A DNA stretch of 64,000 bases from Dehalococcoidia bacterium (GTDB lineage: Bacteria; Chloroflexota; Dehalococcoidia; Bin125): positions 273,119 through 337,118 of the forward strand of contig OZ251457.1 in assembly GCA_965242565.1 (NCBI GenBank), written 5' to 3'. The notes beneath the pieces were generated by a model. It saw only the letters and a program-made list of their open reading frames with translations, was not told where the DNA came from and searched no databases. A program made the translations under genes and the position numbers. Positions within the stretch are counted from its first letter, which is position 1. Each line of letters opens with the position of its first letter. Shown piece after piece: positions 1 through 62,026 of this stretch.

Positions 1-860
1 CCGTCATCCCCGCGCCTCTCCCCACTTCCGTCATACCCGCGCTTGCCGCGGAGCCTGCCCCCGGCTCGAACGGGGGTATCTCGCTGTGACCAGCACCATC
101 GTTGCATCCCGCCTCCCCAACCCCCCGTCGCCCCATCCGTCGCCCCAGACTTGATCTGGGGCCCAAACCCAAGCCCTTTCGCAGGCCGAAGCCCCGAACC
201 ACCTCCCCCCTCCGTTCCCGCGCACTCCCCCCGTCATCCCCGCCCCCTTTTCCCCTACACCCTCGTACCCGCGCCTCTCACCACCCCGTCATCCCCGCGC
301 TTGCCGCGGAGCCTGCCCCCGGCTCGAACGGGGGTATCTCGCCGTGACCAGCACCAACGCCGCGCCCCGCCCCTTCCCTCGTCATTCCCGCCCCTTCCCT
401 CGTCATTCCCGCCCCTTCCCTCGTCATTCCCGCCCCCGAGCGGGAATCTGTCTCGAGCCGCCTCCGACCCCTCGTGCCCTAGGAGCCGCCGCCCTTTTTC
501 CGTCGTTCCAGACTTGATCTGGAACCCATACCCAACCCCCTTACGCAGCGCAGAGGACCGGAGCGGTCCTCCAACGAGCGTGCGCGGAGACTCCGGGGCT
601 TGGTCCCGCCGCCGACCGCCGTATGGGTTCCAGATCAAGTCTGGAACGACGGAAGGAGCGGCGGGTGTGGCGGGGGCGCGGCGAGGGTTGGGTGCTGCTC
701 ACGTCGAGATACCCCCGTTCGAGCCGGGGGCAGGCTCCGCGGCAAGCGCGGGTATGACGGAGTAGAGAGGCGCGGGTATGACGGAGTAGAGAGGCGCGGG
801 TATGACGGTGTAGGGGGAAAAGGGGGCGGGCATGACGGTGTGGGGGGAGAGGGGTGGGGA
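1..860. repeat. Cluster of CGTC-type palindromic (REP-like) repeats, families A, B and C, plus tandem half-sites
   Basis: A: cgtcatacccgcgcttgccgcgg[insert]gtatctcg at 29-83, about 287-341 and reverse about 705-759. B: ccgtcgccccagacttgatctggggccc at about 137, with variants at about 500 and reverse about 621. C: cgtcattcccgcccccgagcgggaatc at about 422. Tandem left-half copies at 380-440 and 748-840. Confidence 0.9.
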
Positions 861-871
861 TGCCCCCCAAA

Positions 872-3800
872 TCAGCCCGGGGGATCGGCCGAGAGCCAGA
901 GGGCGTCGCCGCGCGCGATGGTGAAATCGCGCGAACCATGCACCAGCTGGCCCGCCACCACCCCGTAGCGCAGCCAGCGGCCGTTGTGCCAGATGCTCAG
1001 CGTGGTCACGCCCTCCAGCGCCGGCAGCAGGTCCGACGCGCGGATGGACTCCGCGCTCGTCCAGATGGCGAACGCGCCCGCGCTCGTCGCCGTCAGCGAC
1101 TCCGTCAGGCTGGGCGGCGGCGGCGCGGCGACCCTGACCAGCGTGACCGCCGTCAGTCCGTCCGCCGCGGCGGTCAGCGTGACCATGCCCGGCGTCACCG
1201 CCGTGTACGTCGCCGATGCTTGCCCGTCGGTCGTGCTGAGGTCGCGGCGTAGCTGCACGACGCCCGCCGAGCCGCTCGGCGCGATCTCCGACCACTCCAC
1301 CGGCGTGCCGTCGGGCACCGACGCGCCCGCCGCGTCGCTCAGCGTCGCCGTCACCGTGAACTCGCCGTCGGGGTCGACCTGGACCGTTTCGGGCTCGAGC
1401 GAAATCGACGCCGCGGCCCCGGCCACGGTGAAGGTGCGCTCGGCCGTCAGCGCGCCCGCACGCACGCTCAGCGTGTACTCCCCGTTGGTCAGTGGCTGCG
1501 CCGCCGCGCGGTCCACGTCGATCCGCACCTGGCGCTGGCCGGCCGCGTTCAGCAGCGGTTCGTCGGCGCTGTCGAGCAGCGGCCAGCTCAGCTCCACCCC
1601 GCCCGCACCTGTTTGTACGCGCTTGCCGTCGGGCCCTGTCATCCAGGCCGTCTGCGAGCCGCTCGTGGGAGTCGGCACATCCGAGCCGTTCTCGTCCGCC
1701 GCCGTCACCGCCAGCGTCAGCACGTCGCGGTTGTCGACGGCCGCGCCCGTGTCCGCCGTATCCACGCCGAGCAGACTGGTGCTCGGTTCCGAAATCGCCA
1801 GCGACGTCGCCGGGCCGGCCAGCGCGATGCTCAGCGGTCCTGCGTTGGCCGTCTCGCCCGCCTTCGAAATCGCCGTCGCGCTCACGCTCGCCGTGCGCGC
1901 CCGCGCGATGTCGGCGTCGCGCGGGTAGCGCAAGGTCACGAATACCCGGTCCGAGTTGCCCGCCGTCAGCGCCGAACCGTCGATCACGCAGCTCGCCCCT
2001 CCGTTGCCGCCCTGACAGCCCCCGCCGAGCGTGGTGCTCAGCTCGCCCACTGTGGTCGTGATGTTCAGCACCCCCACGCTGCCGGTCCCCGCCGCCGCGC
2101 CGTTCTCGTTCAGCACCTGGAGGTGCAGGCGCGTCGTCTCGCCTCGCTGCAGCGTGTCCGGATAGAGCGTGTCGTCATCCGTGTTCGTCGTGCCCTGATC
2201 ATTGGTCGCGCGGTCCATTTTCAGCTCCGCGACCTCGACCACCTCGTCGATCGTGATCTCGAGCGGCTCGGCCCGCACCGTCACCGCGCTGCCCGCATCG
2301 CCCTCGGCTGCCATCGTCAGCTCGCCGTTAACCGTCAGCGTCTGCCCCTTCGTGCCGGCCGGAATCACCACGCTGCCGCTCGCGATCAGGCATTCCACGC
2401 CAGGCTCGCCGCCCACCGTTGCCGGCGCGCAGGCGTGGCCCTCGCTGAGGAAAAATCCGCTCGCCGCCGCGCCCGTCTGCGAGGCGACCGGCCGCGAGAT
2501 CACGTAGCGCGCGCCGTCCGGATCCCAGCGCGGCCGCACGCCGAAATAGCCCTGGTTCGCGTCGGTCGGCGGCTCCAGGCCGGGGTCGATCGTCGGAAAG
2601 CCTCCGCCGTCGACATATCGCCCGTCCGTCTGTCGGTTCCAGAAATGTACGTCCCCCGAGTTGCTGGGCGCCGCAACGGCGTAGCCGATCAGCATCTGGC
2701 TGTCGTCGCGATTGAAGGCCAGGCCGCCCCGGCCCAGACCGCCGGCGACGACATCAAAACCCCACCGACTGCCTCTGGTCTGCGAGACGGACCATCCCGA
2801 CACGGAGCTCACCTGGAACATCTGGACTCTGCCGTCCTGGCGCTGTGAGGAGGCCGCGATCGCCAGGCCGTCGCTCGAAACGGCGAGCGTCTGACCGAAA
2901 TACTGATTAGCGGTAAAGCTGCCGCTGCCCCGCAGCCGTCCGGTCTCCGCGACGACCCGCCGGGCCGGGCCCGGCGCATAGTGGTTGGCCGGATTGAAGC
3001 CGTTGGCGTTCGCGCCCGCCGCGATCAGCGTCTTGGTCGCGCCCCCCGTGCCGACGCTCGCCAACGGCGCCGCCGCCCAGCCGCCCTCCGGAGCCACGAA
3101 CACGTAGACCAGTCCCTGGTTTCGCACATCCTGGAGCGCGAAGATGCCATTCACATAAATCCCCCCTGTGCATCCGATCCCCTCAGCGACCGTCCTGTTG
3201 GGATTCACGTGGCACGACAGGGGAGCTGCGACTGCCAGCACCCGGCCGTCGCGCGAGATCGCCAGATCCGGGAAGGCGAACTGAAACGGGCCGCCCTCGA
3301 ACATCATCGCAGCGTCCCGGCACCACCAGTCGCAGTTGTTCGCGTCGGTGTGGTTGAACGGCCGCGTGCTGGCGTCGGACGGGTCGCCCCAGGGCGGCGT
3401 GGGCGCGGTCGTGACTTTGGTCCCGTCGGCGTACTCGATGTCGCCCCAGCTTTGGCCCGCGCCGTCGGGCCGCGTGTAGACGTAGACCGCGCCGATGTGG
3501 TTCATCCGCTGCGCCCCCACCGCCAGCGTCGAGCCGTCGCCCGAGATCACAATCGAAGAGCCGTAGCGCGGCTCATCCGCGGAACCCGAGGTGTTTTTGA
3601 CATTGCCGAACTCGCTGCGGGGCGGGACCAGCCGCTTGACCATCGTCACTTCGACCGGCGATGCGCTCCAGTCGACCGAGTAGATGTAGACGCTGCCGAC
3701 ATTGGCGGCGCCGCCGATGTCGTCGTCGGGCGAGGCGATGAACAGCCATGCGGTGTTCTCGGATTCCTGCCAGACCGCAGCCCCGGAGGCGACGGGGTGG

Positions 3801-4363
3801 TCGCTCAGGCTGCTGTCGGTGCGGCCGAATGTGCTGGTCGAGTCGACCGTGTCGGGCGCGCTGATCACCGCGACCTGGCGCCTGTTCCAGGTGTCGAAGA
3901 GGTAGGCCTCGCCGAGCACGGAGGTGGCCAGCAGGGTACGCGAGTGCAGCGCCGCCGCGACCACCAGGCCGGCCGAGCCGACCGGCTGCCCGTTGGCCCG
4001 CGTCGGCGAGAGCAGCTCCAGCGAGGTGCGCCCGGTGGTGGGATTCTCGGCCGGCCCCGTGTCCGAATCGGCCGGCGCCAGCCGCAGCCGCGACGAACTC
4101 TCCCACTGCCAGAAATAGTCGCCCCTCAGCCGCAGCGCCTTGTTGGAGAGGTTGTAGGCCTCACCGTCCAGCGAGCCGCGGAAGCGCAGCTGGGCGTTGA
4201 TGCTGATCTCGCTGTCCGGCGGCGCCACGTTGTCCGATTCGTCCGGCACCGTCAGCACCAGCTCCGGCTGCAAATGCCCGTCCGCCTGTACCGGCGCAAG
4301 CGCAACCAGCGATCCCGCCAGCAGCGCGGCCAGCGCGAGCAGGGCGGTGAGGGCCGCCGTCAC
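872..4363 (-). CDS. Large secreted/surface protein with FG-GAP-like repeats, Ig-like (invasin/Big-type) domains and a small C-terminal domain; the likely true start (ATG 4416) is separated by a G11 tract
   Basis: Hydrophobic segment TAALTALLALAALLAGSLVALAPVQA; FG-GAP-like motifs (YGSSIVISGDGSTLAVGA..GAVYVY; FGQTLAVSSDG); Big-like VTATLSDAAGASVPDGTPVEW..TTDGQASATY. The ORF-track extension to 4633 runs through repeats. Confidence 0.8.
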   Translation of the reverse strand: MTAALTALLALAALLAGSLVALAPVQADGHLQPELVLTVPDESDNVAPPDSEISINAQLRFRGSLDGEAYNLSNKALRLRGDYFWQWESSSRLRLAPADSDTGPAENPTTGRTSLELLSPTRANGQPVGSAGLVVAAALHSRTLLATSVLGEAYLFDTWNRRQVAVISAPDTVDSTSTFGRTDSSLSDHPVASGAAVWQESENTAWLFIASPDDDIGGAANVGSVYIYSVDWSASPVEVTMVKRLVPPRSEFGNVKNTSGSADEPRYGSSIVISGDGSTLAVGAQRMNHIGAVYVYTRPDGAGQSWGDIEYADGTKVTTAPTPPWGDPSDASTRPFNHTDANNCDWWCRDAAMMFEGGPFQFAFPDLAISRDGRVLAVAAPLSCHVNPNRTVAEGIGCTGGIYVNGIFALQDVRNQGLVYVFVAPEGGWAAAPLASVGTGGATKTLIAAGANANGFNPANHYAPGPARRVVAETGRLRGSGSFTANQYFGQTLAVSSDGLAIAASSQRQDGRVQMFQVSSVSGWSVSQTRGSRWGFDVVAGGLGRGGLAFNRDDSQMLIGYAVAAPSNSGDVHFWNRQTDGRYVDGGGFPTIDPGLEPPTDANQGYFGVRPRWDPDGARYVISRPVASQTGAAASGFFLSEGHACAPATVGGEPGVECLIASGSVVIPAGTKGQTLTVNGELTMAAEGDAGSAVTVRAEPLEITIDEVVEVAELKMDRATNDQGTTNTDDDTLYPDTLQRGETTRLHLQVLNENGAAAGTGSVGVLNITTTVGELSTTLGGGCQGGNGGASCVIDGSALTAGNSDRVFVTLRYPRDADIARARTASVSATAISKAGETANAGPLSIALAGPATSLAISEPSTSLLGVDTADTGAAVDNRDVLTLAVTAADENGSDVPTPTSGSQTAWMTGPDGKRVQTGAGGVELSWPLLDSADEPLLNAAGQRQVRIDVDRAAAQPLTNGEYTLSVRAGALTAERTFTVAGAAASISLEPETVQVDPDGEFTVTATLSDAAGASVPDGTPVEWSEIAPSGSAGVVQLRRDLSTTDGQASATYTAVTPGMVTLTAAADGLTAVTLVRVAAPPPPSLTESLTATSAGAFAIWTSAESIRASDLLPALEGVTTLSIWHNGRWLRYGVVAGQLVHGSRDFTIARGDALWLSADPPG

Positions 4364-4499
4364 TGGGTGTACCCCCCCCCCCTCAAGACGTAACCGCGAA
4401 CGCTGTTCAGTGCCATGTTGCCGCTCCGAATCGCACTCCCAAAAGGGCGCAAGGTGGTCCGCCGGAAAAGCGCAGTCGCGTCCCCGCAGGCTAGCACGG

Positions 4500-5110
4500 C
4501 CGGCGGGCCTCCCCGCCCCCTTATCCACCGCCCCTCCCGCCCCCCCGCACCCCTTCCGTCGCTCCCGCACTCCCTCCCGTCGCCCCAGTACCCCCTCCCG
4601 TCGCCCCAGCACCCCCTCCTGTCGCCCCAGCACCCCCTCCTGTCGCCCCAGAACCCCCTCCGTCGCCCCAGAACCCCCTTCCGTCGCCCCAGACTTGATC
4701 TGGGGCCCAAACCCAATGTTGTGCGCAGCGCTGGAGTCCCGAGCGGTCTCCCAACGCCGTGCGCGGGCTGTTCGGTGCGCTGTGCTGCGAACGGCCGCCG
4801 TCTGGGCCCCATCACAGTTGCTCCGTCATTCCCGCCCCTCACTTCTCCGTCATTCCCGCCCCTCACTTCTCTGTCATTCCCGCCCCCGAGCGGGAATCTC
4901 CCCGCGTCACCACTTCCGTCGCCCCAGACTTGATCTGGGGCCCATACGGCGGTGGTTGGCGAGACGGGGCCCCGAGTGGCCTGCGAACGGCGTTGGCAGG
5001 GCATCCCGACGCTCGACGTCGCGCACAACGTTGGGCTTAGTTGGGCTTAGCCCCCAGATCAAGTCTGGGGCGACGGCAAGGGGTGCTGGGGCGACGGATC
5101 CTGCGGCTGG
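4500..5110. repeat. Palindromic repeat cluster with a tandem 21-bp half-site array
   Basis: About six copies of ccccctccygtcgccccagna at 4570-4690 lead into full family B at 4681. Family C at about 4873 is preceded by half-copies. Family B also at about 4916 and reverse about 5050-5076. Confidence 0.9.
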
Positions 5111-5141
5111 AATGGCGCGAAAAGGGAGCGGTCGGCGCCCG

Positions 5142-5780
5142 TCAGACCACAAAGGCCAGGACGATGCCGAAGAGCGCGATCATGATCGTCAGCGTGATGC
5201 CGAAGAGCCAGCGTTGCTCCCGCCGCACGCGCTCTTCGCTGAAGGCGATTCTGTCGCCGAGCGCGTCGAACTTACCCTCCATTTTGCTGTCGAGCGCGTC
5301 GATTCTGTCGCCGAGCGCGTCGATCTTGCCCTCCATTTTGCCGTCGAGCGCGTCGATCTTACGCTCAAACTTGCTGTCGAGCGCGCCGATCTTGGCATCG
5401 AGAACTTCGAACTTGCGCTCGAATTTGCTGTCGAGCGCGTCGAACTTGTGCTCAAACTTACTGTCGAGCGCGCTGATCTTGCGGTCGAGCTCGCTGACCT
5501 GGCGGTCGATCTTCTGGTCGAGCTCGCTGAATCGGCGGTCGATCTTCTGGTCAAGCTCGTCGAACTTGCGGTCGAGCTCGCTGATCTTGCTGTCCACCTT
5601 TTTGTCGAGGTCGCCGATCTTGTTGTCGAGCGCGCGCTGACCCTGCCGGAGGTCCAGGAGTTGGGTGTCGACGTTCTGGAAGCGTTGGTTGACGTCGGTG
5701 AAGCGCCGGTCAATTTCGTTGAAGCGGCGCTCCGCTTCGTGCGACGTGAGTAGTTCGGTGCGTTCGTCTTGCGTGACCAT
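5142..5780 (-). CDS. Membrane-anchored coiled-coil protein with 11-aa repeats (DUF1640/Bdr-like)
   Basis: Repeats such as KFDALDSKFER and KIDALDGKMEG; C-terminal TM WLFGITLTIMIALFGIVLAFVV. Confidence 0.8.
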   Translation of the reverse strand: MVTQDERTELLTSHEAERRFNEIDRRFTDVNQRFQNVDTQLLDLRQGQRALDNKIGDLDKKVDSKISELDRKFDELDQKIDRRFSELDQKIDRQVSELDRKISALDSKFEHKFDALDSKFERKFEVLDAKIGALDSKFERKIDALDGKMEGKIDALGDRIDALDSKMEGKFDALGDRIAFSEERVRREQRWLFGITLTIMIALFGIVLAFVV

Positions 5781-12150: not shown

Positions 12151-12160
12151 CCGCACTTGC

Positions 12161-12217
12161 TTGAACGCACGTACAGTTGTGCTACATTGGTTCCGAACCG
12201 ACACTCGGTTCGAAACC
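12161..12217 (+). promoter_or_regulatory. Putative sigma70 promoter and inverted-repeat operator upstream of the RM cassette
   Basis: TTGAAC(12161)-16 bp-TACATT(12183), followed by the inverted repeat cgaaccga-cac-tcggttcg (12194-12212). Confidence 0.45.
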
Positions 12218-12294
12218 GGATGCGCAATATGTCAAGCTCGCACAAGCTCAACGACCACCAGACTGCCTACCGGTTTGACCGCTACCCTGCGCCA

Positions 12295-13389
12295 ATGACC
12301 GACACGACCTTTCGTTTCATCGACCTGTTCGCCGGCATCGGTGGCTTCCGCATCGCAATGGAGGCCGCTGGCGGTGAGTGTGTCTTCACCAGCGAGATCG
12401 ACCGCTGGTGCCGGGAGACCTACACCGCCAATTTCGACACCAATCACCCGGTGCGCGGCGACATCCGCGAGGTCCACGAAGACGACATCCCAGACTTTGA
12501 AGTGCTCGTTGCCGGCTTCCCCTGCCAGCCGTTCTCGATCGCCGGCGTGTCGAAGAAGCGGGCGCTCGGGCAGCCCGAGGGCTTCGCCTGCGACACACAG
12601 GGCACGCTGTTCTTCGACATCGCACGCATCCTCGCTGCGCGCCGCCCACGAGCGTTCCTGCTGGAAAACGTCCGCAACCTCGTCAGCCACGACGGCGGCA
12701 GGACGTTCGCCGTGATCCACGAGACGCTCGAACGCGAGCTCGGCTACGAGGTCCACTGGCGCATCCTCAACGCGAAGCATTGGCTCCCCCAACACCGCGA
12801 GCGCATCTTCGTCGTGGGTTTTCGCGAGCCAACGGCATTCGACTTCAACGACTTGTTGGTCCCGGATCTACCGGGGCCGACAATCGGCAGCATCCTCCAC
12901 CCGGAAGACGGGAGCGAGCAAGGTGGCGAGCCGTACGTGAACGGGCCAAGGGGAAAGGTCGATCAGAAATACATCCTCACGAAGCACCTGTGGGATTATC
13001 TCCGCGCATACGCGCGACGCCACAAGGCGCGCGGTAACGGCTTCGGTTTCGGCTTGGTCGGTCCTGACGACGTGTCACGGACGCTTTCTGCCCGGTACTA
13101 CAAGGACGGTTCAGAGATCCTCGTGAAGCGTGGTCTGCGGGGTCAAGCACGCCCGCGACGTTTGACCCCCCGCGAGTGCGCACGGCTGATGGGTTTCGAC
13201 GAACCGCTGGGAAGCAAGTTCCAGATCCGAGTGTCTGACGCGCAGGCGTATCGGCAGTTCGGCAACGCCGTGGCCGTTCCCGTCGCAACGGCCGTGGCGA
13301 ACCTCCTACAGGCGTACTTGCCGCCAGCGCAGCCGACCAATGAGCAACTGGCGATGTTCAGTCGAGAGCGAGAACTCGCATGGACATAG
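12295..13389 (+). CDS. dcm: DNA (cytosine-5) methyltransferase, Dcm/M.EcoRII-like
   Basis: [44 protein letters not shown] (Dcm-type TRD), YRQFGNAV. The start could be further upstream (12220/12229). Confidence 0.92.
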
Positions 13390-15892: not shown

Positions 15893-17881
15893 ATGGTCAC
15901 CGAAATCAAGCCCGACGCCCCCGCCCTGCTCGCCCACCCCCTCGACCCGCTCTCCACCGAGGAAATCGAGCGCGCCTCCGCGCTCGCCAAAGCCCGCGCC
16001 GGCGGCGCCGACTCCATCCGCTTCCCGCTCGTCGCCCTCGCCGAGCCCGACAAGCGCGCCGTGCGCAGCTTCACCGCCGGCGACGCCATTGAGCGGCGCG
16101 CGCTCGCCATCATCTTCAACACCGCCAACGGCGAAACCGCCGAAGCGATCGTCGACCTCAACGCCGACGCCGTCGTCTCCTGGACACCGCGCGACGATGT
16201 GCAGCCCTTCCCCCTGATGGAGGAGTTCGGCCGCGCGCAGGAAACGATCAAGAACGACCCCGAATGGCGCGCCGCCATGGCCCGCAAGGGCGTCACCGAA
16301 GAGCAGCTCAAGACGATCCAGATCGACCCCTGGCCGGCCGGCAACTTCGGCAGCCGCTGGGAGACCGGACATCGCATCCTCAAGGGCATCGCCTACCTGC
16401 GCGACACCGAGAGCGACAACGGCTACGGCCGCCCCGTCGACGGCGTGATGGCCGTGGTCGATCTCGTCGAAAACCGCGTGCTGGAGGTGGTCGAGGAAGA
16501 CGCCCCGCCGCCGCCCGGCTCGGCCTTGCGCTTCGACGGCGAGCACGCCGCCGCACACCCGCGCCAGGACCTCAAGCAGCTCGACATCGTGCAGCCCGAA
16601 GGCGTCTCCTTCACGCTCGACGGCCACCTGCTCAAGTGGCAGAAATGGCAAATGCGCGTCTCCCTCCACCCCCGCGAGGGCCTCGTCCTGCACCAGATCG
16701 CCTACGAAGACGACGGCCGCCTGCGCCCCATCTGCTACCGCGCCTCGATGGCCGAAATGGTCGTCCCCTACGGCGACCCCTCCATCACCCAGTCGTTCAA
16801 AAACGCCTTCGACAGCGGCGAGGTCGGCGGCCTCGGCCGGCTGACCAACTCGCTCGAGCTGGGCTGCGACTGCCTCGGCGAAATCGTCTACATGGACGGC
16901 CACGTGACCGACGAGCGCGGCGGCGCGCGCACCATCAAAAACGCCGTCTGCATCCACGAAGAGGACTTCGGCATCCTCTGGAAGCACACCTACGCCGACG
17001 AAAACGGCCAGCAGTCTTGGGTGCGCCGCTCCCGCCGCCTCGTCGTCTCCGCCATCGCCACCGTCGGCAACTACGACTACGGCTTCTACTGGTACTTCTA
17101 CCAGGACGGCTCCTGGGAGCAGGAAGTCAAGGCGACCGGCATCGTGCAGACCATCTCGATGGCCGACGACGACCCGCAGATCACCCGCCACCGCATCGCG
17201 CCCGGCCTGGGCGGCACCATCCACCAGCACTTCCTCTGCTTCCGCCTCGACATGGAAGTCGACGGCGCGGCCAACAGCGTCTACGAGATCGACACCGTGC
17301 CGCTGCCGCGCAGCGCCGAGTACCCGCTCGGCAACGCCTTCACCGCCCGCGCCACACTGCTCGGACGCGAGTCCGAGGCCGCGCGCTCCGTCAACTCCGC
17401 CTCCGCCCGCCACTGGCGCATCGCCAACGACGCCGCCCGCAACCCGCTGGGCGAGCCGCCCGCCTACATCCTCGCGCCCGGCGAGACGGTCGGCATGATG
17501 GCCGATGAGCAGTCCGCCGTCGGCCAACGCGCCGTCTTCGCCCGCAACCAGCTGCACGTCACCCCCTACGACGACGCCGAGTTCTACCCCGCCGGCGACT
17601 ACCCCAACCAGAGCGAGCCCGGCCAGGGCATCCCCGCCTGGATGGCCGCCGACCGCGCCCTGCAGGACGAGGACCTGGTCGTCTGGTACACCGTCGGGAT
17701 GAACCACCTGGTCTGCCCCGAGGACTGGCCCGTCGCGCCCGTCCACCGCGCCGGCTTCAACCTCAAGCCCTGGGGCTTCTTCGACCGCAACCCCGCGCTC
17801 GACGTCCCGATGCCCGACCACTGCGCGCACGACGAGGAGTCGCATGCCCACGACAACCACTCCCGCAATGGCCACAGCTGA
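15893..17881 (+). CDS. Copper-containing primary amine oxidase 1
   Basis: HPLDPLS, NAFDSGE (catalytic Asp), GNYDY (TPQ motif), HQH and NH..PEDWP Cu ligands, GFFDRNP. Confidence 0.95.
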   Translation: MVTEIKPDAPALLAHPLDPLSTEEIERASALAKARAGGADSIRFPLVALAEPDKRAVRSFTAGDAIERRALAIIFNTANGETAEAIVDLNADAVVSWTPRDDVQPFPLMEEFGRAQETIKNDPEWRAAMARKGVTEEQLKTIQIDPWPAGNFGSRWETGHRILKGIAYLRDTESDNGYGRPVDGVMAVVDLVENRVLEVVEEDAPPPPGSALRFDGEHAAAHPRQDLKQLDIVQPEGVSFTLDGHLLKWQKWQMRVSLHPREGLVLHQIAYEDDGRLRPICYRASMAEMVVPYGDPSITQSFKNAFDSGEVGGLGRLTNSLELGCDCLGEIVYMDGHVTDERGGARTIKNAVCIHEEDFGILWKHTYADENGQQSWVRRSRRLVVSAIATVGNYDYGFYWYFYQDGSWEQEVKATGIVQTISMADDDPQITRHRIAPGLGGTIHQHFLCFRLDMEVDGAANSVYEIDTVPLPRSAEYPLGNAFTARATLLGRESEAARSVNSASARHWRIANDAARNPLGEPPAYILAPGETVGMMADEQSAVGQRAVFARNQLHVTPYDDAEFYPAGDYPNQSEPGQGIPAWMAADRALQDEDLVVWYTVGMNHLVCPEDWPVAPVHRAGFNLKPWGFFDRNPALDVPMPDHCAHDEESHAHDNHSRNGHS

Positions 17882-19826
17882 GCCCGGCGCAGCGGCCGCG
17901 CCCCACCCGCTCGATCCGCTCTCGGCCGACGAAATCGTCCGCGCCTCCGCGATCGCCGCCCGGCACTACGGCTCTCCACCGTCGTTGCGCTTCCTGCTCG
18001 TCGCCGCGCTCGAGCCGCCCAAGGGCGCGCTCCACGACGCGCCGCGCTCCGCCGAACTGCTCTGTCTGGACGCCGAAGCGGGCCTCACCACCGAGGTCGT
18101 CGTCAACCTCGACGCCGGCAGCGTCGTCTCCGCGCTGCCGCGCCCCGGCGTGCAGCCGTTCGCCCTCTTCGAGGAGTACGAGCGCGCCGAGACCGCCATC
18201 CGCGCCGACGCCGGCTGGCGCGCCGCAATGGCCGCCCGCGGCTTCGGCGAGCGCCAAATCGAGCTCGCCTTCCTCCACCTCTGGCCCACCGGCAACTTCG
18301 GCCACAAGTGGGAGACCGAGCACCGCATCCTCAAAGGCATCGCCTACCTGCGCGACGAACCCGACGACAACGCCTACGGACGCCCCGTCGAGGGCCTCGT
18401 CGCCGTCGTCGATCTCGTCGAAAACCGCGTGCTGGAGGTGCTCGACGAACCGTCGCCCCCGCCCGCGCCCACCGCCCTGCGCTTCGACCACGAGCACGGC
18501 GGCGAGCCGCGCCGGGACCTCAAGCCGCTCGACATCACGCAGCCCGACGGCCCGTCGTTCACCCTCGACGGACGCCTGCTCAAGTGGCAGAAGTGGCAGC
18601 TGCGCGTCTCCCTCCACCCCCGCGAGGGCTTGGTCCTGCACCAAATCGGCTACGAGGACGACGGCCGCCTGCGTCCCATCTGCTATCGCGCCTCAATGGC
18701 CGAAATGGTCGTGCCCTACGGCGACCCCTCGGTCGGCCACTACTTCAAAAACGCCTTCGACTCCGGCGAGTGCGGCTTGGGCCGGATGACCAACTCGCTC
18801 GAACTCGGCTGCGACTGCCTCGGCGAAATCGCCTACCTCGACGCCGCCGTCACCGACGAGCGCGGCGGCGCGCGCACGATCAAAAACGCCGTCTGCATCC
18901 ACGAGGAGGATGTCGGCATCCTCTGGAAACACACCTACGAAAAGGGCGACGGAACCGAATCGGCCGTCCGCCGCTCGCGCCGACTGGTCGTCTCCAGCAT
19001 CGCCACCATCGACAACTACGACTACGGCTTCTACTGGTACTTCTACCAGGACGGCTCCTGGGAGCACGAGGTCAAGGCGACCGGCATCGTCCAGACCATG
19101 GCGATCACGGACGACGACCCGCAGATCACGCGCCACAAGATCGGCCCGCAGCTGGGCGCCGTGCATCACCAGCACTTCCTCAGCTTCCGCCTCGACATGG
19201 AGATCGACGGCGGCCCAAACACCGTCTACGAGGTCGACACCGTCCCGCTGCCGCGCAGCGCCGAGTACCCGCTCGGCAACGCCTTCACCGCCCGCGCCCA
19301 GCCGATCGCCGACGAATCGCAGAGCGCGCGCAGCGTCAACGCCGCCGCCGCCCGCCACTGGCGCATCGCCAACGACGACGCCTCCAACCCGCTCGGACAA
19401 CCGCCCGCCTACATCCTCATGCCCGGCCAAACCGTCGCCATGATGGCCGACGAACAGTCGGCCATCGGCCGACGCGCCGCCTTCGCCCGCAACCAGCTCT
19501 GGGTCACCGCCTACGACCCGGCCCAGCGCTACCCCGCCGGCGACTACCCCGCGCAGAGCGAGCCGGGCCAGGGCATGCCCCGGTGGATCGCCGCCGAGCG
19601 CCCGCTCGAGCAGGCCGACGTCGTGCTCTGGTACACCGTCGGCGTCAACCACATCGTGCGCCCCGAAGACTGGCCCGTCGCCCCCGTCCACCGCGCCGGC
19701 TTCGCGCTCAAACCCTGGGGCTTCTTCGACCGCAACCCCGCGCTCGACCTGCCCATGCCCGACCACTGTGCGCACGACGAAGAGGCGCACGGCGACAGCC
19801 ACGGCGCGCAGAACGGGCGCAGCTAA
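17868..19826 (+). CDS. Copper-containing primary amine oxidase 2 (tandem paralog)
   Basis: Same motif set (DNYDY, HHQH, NHIVRPEDWP); overlaps the end of copy 1. Confidence 0.95.
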   Translation: MATAEPGAAAAPHPLDPLSADEIVRASAIAARHYGSPPSLRFLLVAALEPPKGALHDAPRSAELLCLDAEAGLTTEVVVNLDAGSVVSALPRPGVQPFALFEEYERAETAIRADAGWRAAMAARGFGERQIELAFLHLWPTGNFGHKWETEHRILKGIAYLRDEPDDNAYGRPVEGLVAVVDLVENRVLEVLDEPSPPPAPTALRFDHEHGGEPRRDLKPLDITQPDGPSFTLDGRLLKWQKWQLRVSLHPREGLVLHQIGYEDDGRLRPICYRASMAEMVVPYGDPSVGHYFKNAFDSGECGLGRMTNSLELGCDCLGEIAYLDAAVTDERGGARTIKNAVCIHEEDVGILWKHTYEKGDGTESAVRRSRRLVVSSIATIDNYDYGFYWYFYQDGSWEHEVKATGIVQTMAITDDDPQITRHKIGPQLGAVHHQHFLSFRLDMEIDGGPNTVYEVDTVPLPRSAEYPLGNAFTARAQPIADESQSARSVNAAAARHWRIANDDASNPLGQPPAYILMPGQTVAMMADEQSAIGRRAAFARNQLWVTAYDPAQRYPAGDYPAQSEPGQGMPRWIAAERPLEQADVVLWYTVGVNHIVRPEDWPVAPVHRAGFALKPWGFFDRNPALDLPMPDHCAHDEEAHGDSHGAQNGRS

Positions 19827-19927: not shown

Positions 19928-21205
19928 ATGGTCACCGCCGAAGCGACATCGGCCGATGTGTTCGCCGAGCTCGAATCCGAAGTCCGCTCCTACTGCCGCG
20001 CCTGGCCCACCGTCTTCACCCGCGCCCAGGGCGCGCGGATCGAGGACGAATCAGGCCGCTCCTACATCGACTTCTTCGCCGGCGCCGGCGCGCTCAACTA
20101 CGGACACAACCCGCCCCAAATGATCGCCGCCCTGATCGACTACCTGCAATCCGGCGGCATCCTCCACAGCCTCGACATGTCCACCGCCGCCAAGCGCGAC
20201 TTCCTGCTGCGCTTCGACGAGCTGATCCTCGCCCCGCGCGGCATGCGCTACCGCGTCCAGTTCCCCGGCCCCACCGGCGCAAACGCCGTCGAAGCCGCGC
20301 TCAAGCTCGCCCGCAAGGTCACCGGACGCCGCACCGTCGTCTCCTTCACCAACGCCTTCCACGGCATGACGCTCGGCGCGCTCGCCGTCAGCGCCAACCC
20401 TTTCAAACGCGAGGGCGCAGGCGTCCCGCTTGAATACACCGCCACCGCCCCCTACGACGGCCAGCTGAACGGCCAACTGGGCGATGTCGACACCATCGAA
20501 ACGCTCGACGCGATGCTGACCGACGACCCGGCCGCCGCCGTGATCGTGGAAACCGTGCAGGGCGAGGGCGGGCTGCACGCCGCGAGCGACGGCTGGCTGC
20601 AACGACTCGAAGAGTGCTGCCGACGCCACGGCGCGCTGCTGATCGTCGACGACATCCAGGCCGGCTGCGGGCGCACCGGCGCGTTCTTCTCCTTCGAGCC
20701 GTCCGGCATTTCGCCCGACATCATCACCCTCTCCAAATCGATCAGCGGCCTCGGCCTGCCGCTCGCGCTCACGCTGATCCGCCCCGATCTGGACATCTGG
20801 AAGCCCGGCGAGCACAACGGCACCTTCCGCGGCAACAACGCCGCCTTCGTCACCGCAACCGCCGCGCTGGAGCACTGGCGCGACGACGCCCTCACACAGG
20901 CCCTTACACAGCCAGTCGAGCGCAAGGCAGCCCGCATCCGCGCCGAGCTCGAAGCCATCTGCGTCGAACAGGAACAACTGCGCGCCACCCCCCGCGGCCG
21001 CGGCCTCCTGCAAGGCCTGCACACCCCGCTCCCCAACCTCGCCAACCAAATCGCCGCGCAAGCCTTCACCCACGGCCTGCTGGTCGAAACCTCCGGCGCA
21101 GACGCCGACGTGGTCAAGCTGATGCCCCCCCTCACCATCAACGACGCCGACCTGGAGCAAGGCCTAAAAATCCTCCAAACCTCAGTCGCCGCCGCCCTCA
21201 CCTAA
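19928..21205 (+). CDS. ectB: Diaminobutyrate--2-oxoglutarate transaminase (EctB-like)
   Basis: ESEVRSYCRAWP, DFFAGAGALNYGHN, QFPGPTGANAVE, ETVQGEGG, DDIQAGCGRTG, PGEHNGTFRGNN. Confidence 0.9.
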   Translation: MVTAEATSADVFAELESEVRSYCRAWPTVFTRAQGARIEDESGRSYIDFFAGAGALNYGHNPPQMIAALIDYLQSGGILHSLDMSTAAKRDFLLRFDELILAPRGMRYRVQFPGPTGANAVEAALKLARKVTGRRTVVSFTNAFHGMTLGALAVSANPFKREGAGVPLEYTATAPYDGQLNGQLGDVDTIETLDAMLTDDPAAAVIVETVQGEGGLHAASDGWLQRLEECCRRHGALLIVDDIQAGCGRTGAFFSFEPSGISPDIITLSKSISGLGLPLALTLIRPDLDIWKPGEHNGTFRGNNAAFVTATAALEHWRDDALTQALTQPVERKAARIRAELEAICVEQEQLRATPRGRGLLQGLHTPLPNLANQIAAQAFTHGLLVETSGADADVVKLMPPLTINDADLEQGLKILQTSVAAALT

Positions 21206-57220: not shown

Positions 57221-58783
57221 ATGAGACACGCAGCATTCGTGTTCGCACGAACGTTCTGTGGGGGGGGGGGGGGGGCAACTCTCCTAGCTAGCGCCGTGGC
57301 GCTGACCATAGCGGTGGCTTGGGCGACGACAGCCGCGAGCGCGCAAGGGTCATGTCCGACGCTCGCCGATTTGCGACCGGAACTGAATGCCCCGGTGACT
57401 GTCTCGGGTTCGTGGTCTTCTTCGGATTGCGAAGCGCCGTGGCGAGAGGATCGCTACTCGGATCGATACCGCCTGCACATCTCGGAGCTCGCGTGGGTGA
57501 TGATCGATCTCACTTCGCGTGTCGACACATGGCTCCGCCTCGTCGATGCGGACGACCGTCGACCAGTGGACAACGACGACATCAGCTACTCCAGTCGTAA
57601 CCTTAACTCTCGGATCGTGCGGCCGCTTGAACCGGGGACATACTACGTCGAAGCGTCGACCTACGGCCCTCGAGCAACAGGCTCCTATGCCTTGCGCATC
57701 AGCGTCGACGACTGCAAGGCGATCGAGATCGCAGTCCCGTACAGCAGTCGTGAGAGCCTGTCGCCTGACGGCTGCCACGACCTGTACGACCTCGCCGACT
57801 ACGCGGACATCTACAGCTTCCAGCTGGATGTCGAGGCCGAGCTGACCATTGACTTGGGGTCCAGAGCATTCAACGCATTCGTGCGCCTGCTGGACGATCG
57901 CGGAACCGAGATCGAACACGACAATGACGACGGCAACGGACAGGACTCGTGGATCGAACTGGTGCTTCCGGCAGGGGCGTACCATATCGTCGCAACGGAC
58001 TACAGCAGGGGCCGAGGGGAAGGCTCCTACGAGCTTCGCGTGGCAGTGGAGTGGGCAGAGAGCGTCTACAGAGACGAAGTTCATGAACCATGTGAGCCGG
58101 ATCGACATCTCCGCACCAGCCCATACTGGAAGGACGATCCGCTGGACGTCCAATCCGTGAAGCAGCTGATGACAAGGGTGCTGTTTCAGATCGCAGCTGA
58201 TGATGACGTTACCCTCTGCACCAACTCCGACTACAACGACTTCGGCGCACCAAGGCCGTGGCATGGAGCGGGAGGGTATACCGGCGGCCACGCAGGGTGG
58301 GACGTTCAGACGACGAACGTCTACCAAGACCGCACGGCGAACGTGCCGTTCTACTCTCTGACCGACGGCGAGGTCGTCTATGTCGATTCCATGTCGCTTG
58401 GCGCTATCGGGGTGTATGACGCCGACGAGGGCTTCACTGTCTACTACCTTCACGCACGCCACGTGTACGTGCGTGAAGGCCAGCGAGTGTCGGTCGATCA
58501 GCGTCTCGGAATCCAGGGAGACGCAGGTGTTCCGGGGAAGGAGCACATCCATATTGAGGTGCATCGCGGTAGCCGTACCGTCCCTGACGAGCAGGGAAAT
58601 TTACGCCACCACTTTGGAGGAGCATTCAACGCTCCTGGCCGTGGCGGTGCTAACACCCTGCTGCTGTGGCACGAACAGCTGAATTACCTGTGCGAGGCGT
58701 CGGCGGGCAGCCAGCTTCGGCTGGACAATGGACGGTGTCCGTCACTAGACGCGACTGACGCGCCCAGCCCGGATCTCAGATGA
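57221..58783 (+). CDS. Secreted protein with two PPC-like domains and an M23 peptidase; G16 tract in the signal-peptide region
   Basis: DTWLRL..DNDD..NSRI..PGTYYVEAST (PPC-like, twice); HAGWD, YLH and HIH M23 zinc motifs. Confidence 0.85.
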   Translation: MRHAAFVFARTFCGGGGGATLLASAVALTIAVAWATTAASAQGSCPTLADLRPELNAPVTVSGSWSSSDCEAPWREDRYSDRYRLHISELAWVMIDLTSRVDTWLRLVDADDRRPVDNDDISYSSRNLNSRIVRPLEPGTYYVEASTYGPRATGSYALRISVDDCKAIEIAVPYSSRESLSPDGCHDLYDLADYADIYSFQLDVEAELTIDLGSRAFNAFVRLLDDRGTEIEHDNDDGNGQDSWIELVLPAGAYHIVATDYSRGRGEGSYELRVAVEWAESVYRDEVHEPCEPDRHLRTSPYWKDDPLDVQSVKQLMTRVLFQIAADDDVTLCTNSDYNDFGAPRPWHGAGGYTGGHAGWDVQTTNVYQDRTANVPFYSLTDGEVVYVDSMSLGAIGVYDADEGFTVYYLHARHVYVREGQRVSVDQRLGIQGDAGVPGKEHIHIEVHRGSRTVPDEQGNLRHHFGGAFNAPGRGGANTLLLWHEQLNYLCEASAGSQLRLDNGRCPSLDATDAPSPDLR

Positions 58784-60682: not shown

Positions 60683-62026
60683 GTGCCTATGGCTGTGCCC
60701 GATGTGCCGGGGTCTCTGACGCTGCTGCTGCCGGATCACTGGGCGGCGTCTGATCGCGCGTTGGAGGCGATTGAGTATCCCAATCCGGCCTGGACGTTCC
60801 AGCGCGGACATTTCGGCGAGCTGGCGCTGACGCCGCTGCCGGGGCATCGCAACTCGGCCGTCAGCACCGAGGTCACGATGCAGTTCCTCGAGTGGCACAA
60901 GCAGCACGAGGAGGGCGTGTTGCACGGCTTCAACATCGGCTACGCGCCGACCGATGACGAGGGCCGCGCGCCGGGCCTGGCGGCCGCGACCTCCTGGATC
61001 GCGCCGGATCAGGTCGAGGCGCTGCGCGAGGAGCGCGGCGAGCCGCTGGGCGAGTACGACCCCGAAAAGCCGTTCCCGGCCTGCGCGCCCGCCTTCGTGC
61101 TGGAAATCCGCTCGCCCTATCAGTCGCTGCGGCAATGCACCGACAAAATGCGCCTCTGGATGCACTTCGGGACACGACTCGGCTGGCTCTTCGACCCCGA
61201 CAATCTGGAGGTGCGGATCTACCGCCCCGGTCGGCCGGCGCAGCGGCGAATGAAGCCGCCCCAGCTGCGCGGCGAGGAAGTGTTACAGGGGCTGGTCTTC
61301 GACTGCCGCCCGATCTGGGAGGAGCTGGCCGAGCGCGGCGAGCCCTCGCGCTCCAACCAGCCGCTGCTCGACTGGCGGGCGCACGGCGACATTCGCGGCG
61401 CGGTCGATCCGAGTTATCGCCCGGGCGGATCGGACCCGGCGCTGCAAACAATCCGTGAGGGCCCGCTGCCGCTGCTGGACCTCTGGCTGCCCGATGAGTG
61501 GCCGCTCGACGACGCGGCGCTGGCGCAGCTGAACGAGCGCAATCCGCAGTGGGCGTTCGAGATGGGCCTCGACGGCGGCTTGCAAATTACCGATCCGAAC
61601 GAAGCGGAAGCCTCGCCGCGCACAAGCAGCAGTAGCACACTGATGAACCCCGACGCGCCCCGCGCCCCGCAGGTGATGAGCGCCGCGACCTCCTGGGTAT
61701 CCGACGAGCGGCTGAAGAACGCAAAGCGCGCCGACTCCGCAGGCACGATCGAAGTAGTGCCCAACTTCGTAGCCGAGATTCGCTCCGGCTCACAATCGCT
61801 CACGGATCTCCAACACAAAATGCTGCGCTGGATCTACTACGGCGTGCAACTCGGCTGGCTGCTGGACCCCGATACCCGCACAGTCTGGATCTACCGCGAA
61901 AACCAGCCCCCCGAAAAAGTAGTAAGCCCCCGCCAACTGTCGGGCGAAGATGTAATGGTCGGCTTCACGCTGGAGCTGGACCAAATCTGGGACTGGGCGG
62001 GGGACCTGGAGGAGGGCGAAGGGTAG
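60683..62026 (+). CDS. Double Uma2 (DUF820) domain protein
   Basis: PAFVLEIRSP..KM..W...GTRLGWLFDP and PNFVAEIRSG..KM..W...GVQLGWLLDP. Confidence 0.88.
   Translation: MPMAVPDVPGSLTLLLPDHWAASDRALEAIEYPNPAWTFQRGHFGELALTPLPGHRNSAVSTEVTMQFLEWHKQHEEGVLHGFNIGYAPTDDEGRAPGLAAATSWIAPDQVEALREERGEPLGEYDPEKPFPACAPAFVLEIRSPYQSLRQCTDKMRLWMHFGTRLGWLFDPDNLEVRIYRPGRPAQRRMKPPQLRGEEVLQGLVFDCRPIWEELAERGEPSRSNQPLLDWRAHGDIRGAVDPSYRPGGSDPALQTIREGPLPLLDLWLPDEWPLDDAALAQLNERNPQWAFEMGLDGGLQITDPNEAEASPRTSSSSTLMNPDAPRAPQVMSAATSWVSDERLKNAKRADSAGTIEVVPNFVAEIRSGSQSLTDLQHKMLRWIYYGVQLGWLLDPDTRTVWIYRENQPPEKVVSPRQLSGEDVMVGFTLELDQIWDWAGDLEEGEG

Follow-up and report, generated by a model that had tools for sequence, protein, structure and literature searches.

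A poly-G tract as a probable phase-variation switch in the signal-peptide coding region of an integrin-alpha-like protein gene from a sponge-associated Dehalococcoidia

Results

The stretch of DNA analyzed in this work (the window, 64,000 nucleotides of contig OZ251457.1, assembly GCA_965242565.1) comes from a sponge-associated Dehalococcoidia with 68.5% G+C. On its minus strand, a long open frame occupies positions 872..4633, with a GC3 of 0.88 over its whole length, similar to that of the neighbouring genes. Positions 872..4282 (1,136 codons plus the stop) encode an intact mature integrin-alpha-like surface protein, and positions 4283..4371 the remaining part of a signal peptide, whose translation contains a hydrophobic core and ..APVQA followed by DGH, the predicted cleavage site. 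Further upstream, a Shine-Dalgarno-like GGAG (4424..4427) precedes a leader ATG (4414..4416) with a spacer of 7 nt, as stated in the original prediction; this GGAG aligns with the GGAG/AGGAG of the 5' ends of the four closest paralogs, and the 3' end of the 16S rRNA, ..GGATCACCTCCTTTCT, carries the standard anti-Shine-Dalgarno sequence (CCUCC). A homopolymeric tract of 11 G (C11 on the plus strand; 4372..4382), the proposed slippage site, lies 34 nt past the A of the ATG, inside the 5' coding region, and is longer than the approximately 8-9 nt from which slippage is expected.

The long frame is open across the G11 tract. The frame of ATG 4416, as assembled, translates as MALNSVRGYVLRGGGYTQ, 18 codons that end in ..GGGYTQ at a TGA (4360..4362) three codons past the tract, which agrees with the original reading. 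Entry from this ATG into the long frame needs a tract length divisible by three, that is, G12 or G9, as had been proposed, and also G15. One additional G joins the ATG frame to a frame of 1,165 codons, and the product would have 16 + 1,165 = 1,181 residues. The features of a Sec (type I) signal peptide, judged by eye, are R7 and R12 before the tract in the ATG frame, an L/A-rich core and ..APVQA before DGH; the consensus of the family alignment has the same L/A-rich core, followed by A.AD. An in-frame GTG (4361..4363), 8 nt past the G run and a Val codon in the in-frame orthologs, is a possible bypass start, and the leader translated from it has no basic residue ahead of the hydrophobic core, in line with the claim that this start lacks a basic n-region. 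Neither a sigma-70-like promoter nor a terminator was found in 4300-5100, no Rfam family matched 4200-5200, and the RNA fold around the tract was not unusual (z = 0.05), with no stimulatory structure apparent.

In the structural model, an integrin-alpha-like FG-GAP propeller precedes Ig-like domains, and the product is presumably located at the cell surface. In Foldseek searches with its AlphaFold model (mean pLDDT 80.6), the best matches were integrin alpha-V, alpha-IIb and alpha-5 chains (E 2.7e-16 to 5e-14), and integrin alpha chains made up 16 of the 17 first-listed matches (E 2.7e-16 to 7.5e-14) with alignments of about 1,150-1,290 columns; the TM-scores of just 0.15-0.31 are those expected for multi-domain chains. 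This fold fits the FG-GAP/Ig description given originally. At the sequence level, Pfam FG-GAP_2 reached 23.3 bits against a cut-off of 23, with no single stretch passing alone, and Big_1 reached 24.2 bits, below its cut-off of 34.9. PF14312 was precomputed on 9 of 72 homologs, and the matching Atlas features were FG-GAP_2 clusters at 0.90. The protein sequence matched no chain among the solved structures, and nothing was found with it in NCBIfam.

A comparison of orthologs had been suggested together with the original prediction. The protein P0002 (97% identical, 1,181 aa) begins MALHSVLGYVLRGGGVRPVTAVLTALL; it starts at the equivalent ATG, shares 13 of its first 15 residues with the short ATG frame of the window and reads through the tract as ..RGGGV... 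It has the form with a complete signal peptide that G12 had been predicted to restore. The tract length hence differs between the window and this ortholog, the G12 of P0002 being deduced from its protein (RGGGV) and not from DNA. A more distant ortholog, P0004 (59% identical), begins M.LNSVRGYVLRGGGV; it starts at the same Met and likewise continues through ..RGGGV.. into the signal peptide. The position of GTG 4363 is retained as Val/GTG in both. Three of the five closest homologs in the database (P0003, P0006 and P0007) have only downstream starts called, that of P0006 at the position equivalent to GTG 4363 (M-IAALTAL). A protein search for relatives in genome contigs and metagenome contigs returned none, and a search of metagenome contigs for the exact flanks around a tract of variable length gave no match.

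The protein has at least 16 paralogs of about 1,150-1,350 aa in the same genome, with a tract in at least 12 of the 16. The four closest paralogs align with the window in their Shine-Dalgarno sequence and ATG and share its order of elements (ATG, a stretch of 34-38 nt, G tract, signal peptide). In three paralogous 5' ends the 100 nt preceding the tract show 100% identity, whereas the tracts themselves are C11, C14 and C12. Basic residues in the family stand directly after the tract (K, R) or, as at the locus studied here, before it. Some members are clearly broken: the gene behind the tract at 612254 stops after 58 codons, and that behind the tract at 1093418 is in two pieces. The architecture is shared by two sister species, G001 and G005, where the states are mixed (6 of 12 in frame) and where 20 of the 31 family 5' ends fetched carry a tract of at least 11 nt. 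Two loci of G005 (L029 and L030) differ, by our count, at 2 of 75 upstream bases and have tracts of G13 and G12, respectively. G tracts were also observed upstream of family genes.

A scan of the whole genome for long tracts in genes of secreted proteins, another of the checks proposed originally, placed the locus in a wider context. Runs of G or C become about 5-fold rarer per extra base (6,121 of 5 nt, 1,192 of 6, 229 of 7, 31 of 8, 10 of 9 and 2 of 10), and extrapolation of this decay predicts 0.36 runs of 11-16 nt, against 38 present. Since a model of base composition alone would predict 32.7 such runs, the excess holds relative to the tendency of this genome to avoid long runs. By our classification, 28 of the 38 lie inside signal-peptide coding regions, 22 as G ahead of the hydrophobic core and 6 as C (poly-Pro) directly before the A-x-A site; of the other 10, 4 are in promoters or 5' UTRs and 6 elsewhere or unclear. 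A second switch of this kind is found in the window itself: a G16 tract (57260..57275, plus strand), at present in frame, in the leader of a secreted M23-peptidase/PPC protein (57221-58783). G tracts were further seen within genes of the N6_N4 methylase type (by Pfam; in L133 on visual inspection of the translation). The genome encodes MutS and MutL, so that no repair defect raises slippage rates, and a mismatch-repair defect was ruled out as the cause of tract instability.

We also analyzed what follows the tracts. A stop lies directly after the tract in one frame at 20 of 23 loci, compared with 4.6% of 20,000 random positions, and both wrong frames stop within 5 codons at 15 of 23 loci, compared with 1.4% of random positions; paralogous loci are not independent, and these counts therefore overstate the statistical weight. 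In-frame starts at most 5 codons past the tract occur at just 2 of the 23 comparable loci. Eight of the 29 coding tracts are in frame; as all frames stay open upstream at 68.5% G+C, longest-ORF calling was uninformative, and the states were called from the Shine-Dalgarno sequence and start codon, some by hand, including four start codons assigned by hand without a Shine-Dalgarno match (1093418, 612254, 1907067 and 2060602). Runs of at least G11 number 38 in the genome of the window (G000), 88 in G001, 77 in G005, 49 in G007 and 30 in G006, as opposed to 0-9 in a sample of 16 genomes that belong to other families of the class. In a sample of every fourth tract of G001 (20 of 88), 7 were in signal peptides and 4 were of the promoter type.

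The read evidence across the tract consists of assembled contigs from four runs, two of which break at the tract, while one bridges it and one carries an indel. The tract marks the end or the start of contigs of X1 and X2, and two pieces of X2 overlap by exactly C11 plus 19 nt, as a branch in tract length would give. Contig breaks at homopolymers can also stem from sequencing error, and a variation of length inside one sample is only hinted at by these breaks. The X1 and X2 contigs that hold the complete tract read C11. An X3 contig, from a study other than that of the best-matching run, is the one true bridging contig; it spans 2500-4629 without any difference and has the C11 of the assembly, with the proviso that X1, X2 or X3 may be the assembly's own source run. 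In X6, a diverged strain, the contig has one extra letter somewhere within 4291-4564.

Discussion

Taken together, these results make it probable that the G11 run serves as a hypermutable contingency tract, with the start codon on one side and the hydrophobic core of a predicted Sec-type signal peptide on the other. Slipped-strand mispairing at replication would add or remove G residues. As read from the sequence, a ribosome starting at ATG 4416 would stop after 18 codons at G11, leaving the gene OFF, whereas G12, G9 or G15 would yield the 1,181-aa precursor, the form on record in the 97%-identical ortholog. Because the tract sits in the cleaved leader, in-frame changes of length would alter only the number of glycines in the part that is removed, and the mature protein would be unaffected. 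The differing tract lengths between identical flanks argue for a tract that would be hypermutable relative to its surroundings, and the early stops in both wrong frames point to a probable selection for clean termination. With many tracts on a family of at least 16 paralogs, a population could therefore display shifting combinations of surface proteins, and the likely benefit would be to elude phages, or to avoid being recognized and taken up by sponge cells. The contingency locus of the original prediction is thereby supported, but not as a lone feature, as the tract belongs to a genome-wide set: the comparisons of sequences support a view in which it would be one of about thirty length-variable switches.

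It could be argued that the tract tunes expression rather than switching it, with full-length protein still being made at G11. This explanation is compatible with the main one and we regard it as unlikely. It could operate if ribosomes initiated at GTG 4363 and used the G run as Shine-Dalgarno sequence, if they slipped by -1 on this run, or if RNA-polymerase slippage gave some G12 transcripts; to these routes we likewise assign a low probability. GGGGG could pair with the CCUCC anti-Shine-Dalgarno via one G-U pair, and the GTG stands in frame 8 nt past such a run, so that some protein might arise at any length; the retention of the Val/GTG position in P0002 and P0004 and its use as the called start of P0006 go in the same direction. 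In addition, the passage from the ATG frame to the long frame amounts to a -1 shift, the run being one that allows tRNA-Gly to re-pair, and polymerase slippage on long homopolymers is well established. However, (i) a leader started at GTG 4363 would come without a basic residue ahead of its core, while the family keeps such residues just after the tract or, at this locus, before it, (ii) an in-frame start shortly past the tract is present at very few of the comparable loci, (iii) wrong-frame stops at frequencies far above those of random positions suggest selection for clean termination, and (iv) the unremarkable RNA fold and the absence of an Rfam match around the tract leave no stimulatory structure apparent for a ribosomal slip.

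Long homopolymers are the commonest site of error for long-read and some short-read chemistries, and the assembled length might be a consensus error, the true tract being G12, the gene simply ON and nothing switching. The in-frame form of P0002 would fit this possibility. We consider it very unlikely, as the X3 contig and the whole-tract contigs of X1 and X2 all have C11, and as it would leave unexplained the architecture common to three species, the wrong-frame stops and the varied lengths between identical flanks; even with a wrong length at this position, the tract would still be prone to slippage. Least probable of all is that the gene is a decaying pseudogene, a redundant paralog that a 1-nt deletion has inactivated for good. 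Some members of this large family are clearly broken, but here 1,165 stop-free codons follow the tract, GC3 is like that of neighbouring genes, and the sole defect coincides precisely with a tract that differs in length between orthologs.

Beyond this contingency tract, it is tempting to speculate that the genus of sponge-associated Dehalococcoidia runs a large phasome, in which dozens of G/C tracts in cleaved signal peptides, together with others in promoters and DNA methyltransferase genes, would shuffle the display of an expanded family of integrin-alpha-like, eukaryote-like surface proteins, so that the cells would evade uptake by sponge cells or attack by phages. We put this forward tentatively, at somewhat less than even chances. 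Within such a phasome, a promoter tract and a coding tract may occur together in some genes, ATG and GTG starts that overlap in two frames may render two of the three length classes productive at some loci, and a mutualistic or commensal symbiont of an early-branching animal may have stochastic surface variation among its core strategies.

Most known cases of phase variation by repeat slippage come from vertebrate pathogens and commensals. The same device now appears in an uncultured, high-GC sponge Chloroflexota, at a scale at least that of Neisseria and with a family of integrin-like proteins, resembling animal adhesion receptors, as its targets. Our literature search found no report of such surface variation in Chloroflexota, which bears out the expectation of a lineage where it is little described. 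If the switching is real, it offers a testable handle on the means by which symbionts of sponges persist alongside phagocytic host cells and abundant phages, and existing metagenomes allow tract lengths to be read directly and compared across individuals, tissues and host species. A practical consequence is that automated annotation will call many intact surface-protein genes truncated or pseudogenes, of which the starts of P0003, P0006 and P0007 are examples.

Several known systems resemble the one proposed here. In the fim genes of Bordetella a poly-C homopolymer is placed in the promoter spacer, and phase-variable DNA methyltransferases are known as phasevarions; the G tracts seen upstream of family genes and inside genes of the N6_N4 methylase type, both side observations, may be their counterparts. 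Neisseria has working mismatch repair, and MutS and MutL are present here as well. In Listeria monocytogenes, a 5' poly(A) tract in inlA leads to a truncated InlA of 8 aa, with high-frequency reversion (PMC2831843). This case shares with ours a homopolymer at the 5' end that yields a very short truncated product, in accordance with the general 5' bias of homopolymeric tracts, although it concerns poly(A/T) tracts no longer than about 7 nt in a genome of low GC content, whereas here runs of G/C of 11-16 nt would act in a high-GC genome that otherwise avoids them. In terms of phasomes, the contingency loci of Campylobacter jejuni are poly-G tracts (PMC3025981), and Neisseria has on average 15.4-19.4 poly-G tracts per genome (PMC5953494). 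In these organisms and in the bacteria studied here alike, the poly-G/C tracts number in the tens per genome and fall mainly in genes for surface structures, presumed ones in our case. The former, however, are host-restricted Proteobacteria and Campylobacterota of vertebrates, while the latter is an uncultured sponge associate from another phylum, with tract numbers that are equal or higher (38-88 runs of at least 11 nt).

The opa genes of Neisseria have CTCTT repeats in the leader coding region of a multigene family, and cells express from none to several copies (PMC5354566). Both cases involve a paralogous family of surface proteins in which each copy has its own repeat in a cleaved leader; opa has a pentamer repeat and 11-12 small outer-membrane proteins, in contrast to a homopolymer and at least 16 proteins of about 1,150-1,350 aa in our case. 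In the pilC genes of Neisseria gonorrhoeae and N. meningitidis, frameshifts at a homo-guanine tract in the signal-peptide region switch a large surface adhesin on and off (PMC5354566), with tracts ranging from G 9 to 20 (PMC5953494). The likeness to the locus described here lies in a poly-G tract in the signal-peptide part of the gene of a large surface adhesin, presumed in our case, and in the proposed switching by frameshift. The differences lie in the organism, a monoderm-type Chloroflexota with 68.5% G+C; in the product, an integrin-alpha-like propeller rather than a pilus-tip protein; and in the use of one device on 28 genes of one genome. Altogether, the mechanism is apparently the classical one of pilC and opa, and what appears to be new is the lineage, the scale and the family of target proteins.

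Results

The minus-strand gene of the integrin-alpha-like surface protein contains every element that the original prediction had described. An SD-like (Shine-Dalgarno) GGAG (4427-4424) is followed, after a 7-nt spacer, by an ATG (4416-4414) located 31 nt before a G11 tract (4382-4372), and the frame opened by this ATG, translated as MALNSVRGYVLRGGGYTQ, terminates at a TGA (4362-4360). The translated long frame (872..4633, minus strand) is open across the tract, with 1,165 stop-free codons downstream starting at the tract; it includes GTG 4363 and, further on, a hydrophobic stretch rich in L and A whose end, ..APVQA, precedes DGH, and in agreement with the original claim no basic n-region was found downstream of GTG 4363. 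ATG 4416 and the long frame are in register only if the tract length is divisible by 3 (for example 12, 9 or 15), in which case the joined product has 1,181 aa.

A search with the long-frame protein retrieved 72 homologs. The best match, P0002 (97% identical), is exactly 1,181 aa long and has the N-terminus MALHSVLGYVLRGGGVRPVTAVLTALL; its residues 1-15 agree with the short ATG frame of the window at 13 of 15 positions and it matches the long frame starting at GGGV, so that the window's two frames correspond to the two parts of a single ortholog ORF, with the tract as their junction. RGGGV in P0002 is the encoding expected of G12 (a tract length deduced from the protein sequence), and the full signal peptide that G12 was predicted to restore from ATG 4416 would have the same form as in this 1,181-aa ortholog. 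The N-terminus of P0004 (59% identical; encoded in a different near-complete genome) is M.LNSVRGYVLRGGGV, and this similarity indicates that the pre-tract leader is conserved as protein. P0006 and P0007 (52-53%) are annotated only from a start at the GTG 4363 position or later, and P0003 (79%) from one further downstream; these starts would reflect the treatment of out-of-frame alleles by gene callers. Three or more consecutive Gly occur in the first 30 residues of 15 of the 72 homologs, and three or more consecutive Pro in the first 50 residues of a further 12.

The stretch is present in 12 sequencing runs from 6 studies, several of them labelled sponge metagenome, the evidence consisting of assembled contigs rather than of a read-level length spectrum. 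In run X3, a single contig (2500-4629) has zero differences and hence C11. In X1 (depth ~930) contigs stop at 4401 and others start at 4383, and in X2 two contigs (3317-4401 and 4372-4629) overlap by exactly C11 plus 19 nt, which we read as the outcome expected from a 31-mer de Bruijn graph if some reads have C for the A before C11; sequencing error at the homopolymer could also cause such a break. Run X6 holds a strain with ~3% substitutions, whose contig 4291-4564 has one extra letter somewhere along it. These results are compatible with tract-length variation, although they are not proof of it.

The genome of the window is a single contig of 3,259,939 bp with 68.5% G+C. Its G/C runs become ~5-fold rarer per extra base (for lengths 5 to 10: 6,121, 1,192, 229, 31, 10 and 2), and extrapolation of this decay predicts 0.36 runs of 11-16 nt, against 38 observed. 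Because a naive composition model predicts 32.7 such runs, the signal is the second peak of the length distribution, in a genome where long runs are otherwise avoided. When we sorted the 38 runs by their flanks, 22 were G tracts within signal-peptide sequences, downstream of the start codon and ahead of the hydrophobic core, 6 were C tracts (poly-Pro) placed after the hydrophobic core and before an A-x-A site, and 4 lay in promoters or 5' leaders; the remaining 6 fell in REP-like repeats (3), a collagen-repeat gene, a DNA methylase gene and one unassigned place. An SD-preceded or paralog-aligned start is in frame at 8 of 29 coding tracts, near the one-third expected under unconstrained phase.

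The tracts share the flank G(n)TAAA(A)C, whose productive frame reads GGT AAA (Gly-Lys, a basic n-region) and which in another frame gives TAA, an instant stop. Among 23 G-tract loci (the 22 signal-peptide G tracts plus one G10), which are partly paralogous and thus not independent, one frame stops immediately after the tract in 20, and the two wrong frames both terminate within 5 codons in 15; at 20,000 positions drawn at random from the genome the respective frequencies are 4.6% and 1.4%. These loci cover unrelated protein types, namely the integrin-like family, RCC1-like proteins, an M23 peptidase and lipoproteins. At the surface-protein gene itself the post-tract sequence, TACACCCAGTGA, diverges slightly from the common flank; the present frame terminates 3 codons past the tract and the third frame after 69. 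All 28 coding tracts fall inside the precursor part expected to be cleaved off, and in-frame length changes would therefore leave the mature proteins unaltered.

At least 16 paralogous loci of this protein exist in the same genome (our grouping of 29 matches, with 16 of 46 candidates scored): 6 have a leader G tract, 5 a leader C tract, 1 a G16 upstream of the gene, and 4 are without a run of at least 8 at the 5' end. When the 5' ends of its four nearest paralogs are aligned with the locus, the SD, ATG, a 34-38-nt spacer, tract and signal peptide are all in register. Three paralogous leaders are 100% identical across the 100 nt before the tract, yet carry C11, C14 and C12; in G005, a same-genus sister species, two leaders that by our count show 2 differences over 75 upstream bases carry G13 and G12. 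Judging from these alignments, tracts evolve faster than their flanks. A tract of at least 11 nt is present in 20 of 31 family 5' ends from G005 and the other sister species, G001; the windows of the other 11 were set from alignment starts and may miss the true 5' end. Twelve coding tracts of these two species could be scored, 6 in frame and 6 out of frame. A sample of every fourth long tract of G001 (20 of 88) comprised 7 signal peptides, 4 of promoter type, 5 REP-like repeats and 4 others. Across 40 relatives, runs of at least G11 were most numerous in G001 (88), G005 (77), G007 (49, some at contig ends and maybe artefacts or assembly break points) and the window's genome, G000 (38), followed by G006 and G015 (30 each), G009 (28), G018 (24), G002 (22) and G021 (20); the remaining genomes of the family have 0-12, and 16 sampled genomes from other families of the class 0-9.

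Further arrangements were seen around these genes. Several family genes (G000:C1 near 108645, 755200, 1093470 and 2004650) start with ATGTGG, that is, with ATG and GTG overlapping two bases apart, which might make two tract-length classes out of three productive there; homologs of the 1093418 locus are annotated in both frames (P0016 vs P0014 and P0025), and the surface-protein gene has no such second overlapping start. Upstream of family genes there is a second class of tracts (G12-G18), preceded by an A/T-rich motif of which TTTGTAAAAT is an example (G000:C1:728959-728970 with 729148-729161; G000:C1:2980225-2980240; G001 loci L023-L027, L143 and L144; G005 loci L039-L042). Three genes (G000 729148, G001 L026, G005 L041) combine an upstream G tract with a leader C tract, a possible double switch. 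In the window, a G16 tract (57260-57275, plus strand) in the leader of a secreted Peptidase_M23 and PPC protein (57221-58783, plus strand) is at present in frame with an SD-preceded ATG. Elsewhere in the genome, a G14 (G000:C1:470566-470579, L125) lies ~100 codons into a 666-aa collagen triple-helix repeat protein (Pfam 3.4e-53) and is in frame now; a C15 (G000:C1:2899694-2899708) lies 5 nt ahead of the ATG of a membrane permease-like gene, and a G15 (G000:C1:3141790-3141804) immediately follows a TTGACA ahead of the gene for a protein whose leader is of the twin-arginine type. A G15 (G000:C1:3167556-3167570; L124:257-271) falls within the 5' portion of an N6_N4_Mtase ORF (Pfam 9.5e-39) and a G14 within the gene at G001 L133, DNA methylase-like in translation as judged by eye; both genes are candidates for phase-variable DNA methyltransferases of the 'phasevarion' type. 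The intergenic block at 4644-5045 consists of short G-rich units (gggaatgacgg, gggtatgacgg and similar), with summed contig depths of ~830-3,700 in X3 (flanks ~14) and 91,000-274,000 in X1 (flanks ~950), and looks like a REP-like repeat family dispersed in this genome and its relatives; such repeats contain several G9-G14 runs.

The surface protein has no more than borderline Pfam hits, namely FG-GAP_2 (23.3 bits, cut-off 23), for which no stretch passes by itself, and Big_1 (24.2 bits, cut-off 34.9); NCBIfam and PDB sequence searches with it gave no match. Its AlphaFold model (45 family sequences; mean pLDDT 80.6, pTM 0.60) is nearly all beta, and the top Foldseek matches in the PDB are integrin alpha chains (alpha-V, alpha-IIb, alpha-5, alpha-X, alpha-M; E 2.7e-16 to ~1e-12), followed by bacterial S-layer and Ig-domain adhesins. 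The integrin alignments cover the whole length with low TM-scores (0.15-0.31), as would be expected of many domains hinged in different ways, and on the predicted model we take the match as one of common domain types and order, not of rigid superposition. The label 'FG-GAP/Ig adhesin' is a reasonable one, adhesion itself being a putative function. Neighbouring genes belong to ordinary metabolism (ketopantoate reductase, penicillin amidase, thiolase, copper amine oxidases, two of the latter in tandem at 15893-19826, plus strand, Pfam ~1e-150 each). The window also encodes a C-5 cytosine DNA methylase (12157-13389, plus strand) and a Uma2-family putative endonuclease (60683-62026, plus strand). 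The nearest genomes by a neighbouring thiolase gene, chromosome-level Dehalococcoidia MAGs, and the sponge labels of the sequencing runs together indicate a sponge-associated Dehalococcoidia (Chloroflexota).

Discussion

The best-supported reading, which we hold to be probable, is classical phase variation, in which slipped-strand mispairing at G11 would operate a translational switch sited in the leader peptide. The sequence features are confirmed, and the proposed contingency locus is supported by the in-frame ortholog P0002, the excess of long runs (38 vs 0.36) and the shared design; switching itself is what we infer from them. A repair defect as the source of instability is rejected, as the genome encodes MutS and MutL; instability would therefore stem from tract length. 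In Neisseria, tract instability likewise occurs without a repair defect.

The switch may be leaky, some full-length protein being produced at G11, since GTG 4363 sits 8 nt past a G run able to pair with the standard anti-SD, and the ATG frame needs a -1 shift on a run permitting tRNA-Gly re-pairing. However, a large bypass is disfavored by the lack of any basic residue in the leader from GTG 4363, by the presence of a nearby in-frame start in only 2 of 23 loci, and by the absence of an apparent stimulatory RNA structure around the tract. Assembly error is unlikely to lie behind the whole pattern, and contigs of three runs have C11; a dead pseudogene is also unlikely in view of the intact 1,165-codon frame and a GC3 of 0.88 across the long frame.

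The phase variation proposed here is of a kind already known. PMC2831843 describes the inlA case and a bias of homopolymers in general toward the 5' end, and Neisseria genomes are given a mean of 15.4-19.4 poly-G tracts in a section of PMC5953494. Among the top 12-20 hits of full-text searches of open-access papers and bioRxiv we found no report tying sponge symbionts or Chloroflexota to this mechanism, and the words 'Chloroflex' and 'symbiont' are absent from a 2025 review (PMC11868660). The nearest precedents are gonococcal pilC, with a homo-guanine tract within the signal-peptide region, and the opa family, in which every paralog has CTCTT repeats in the sequence coding for the leader peptide, both as described in passages of PMC5354566. 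The novelty lies in the lineage (a sponge-associated member of the Chloroflexota with high G+C) and the scale, together with the consistent siting in cleaved signal peptides and an expanded integrin-like family as the target.
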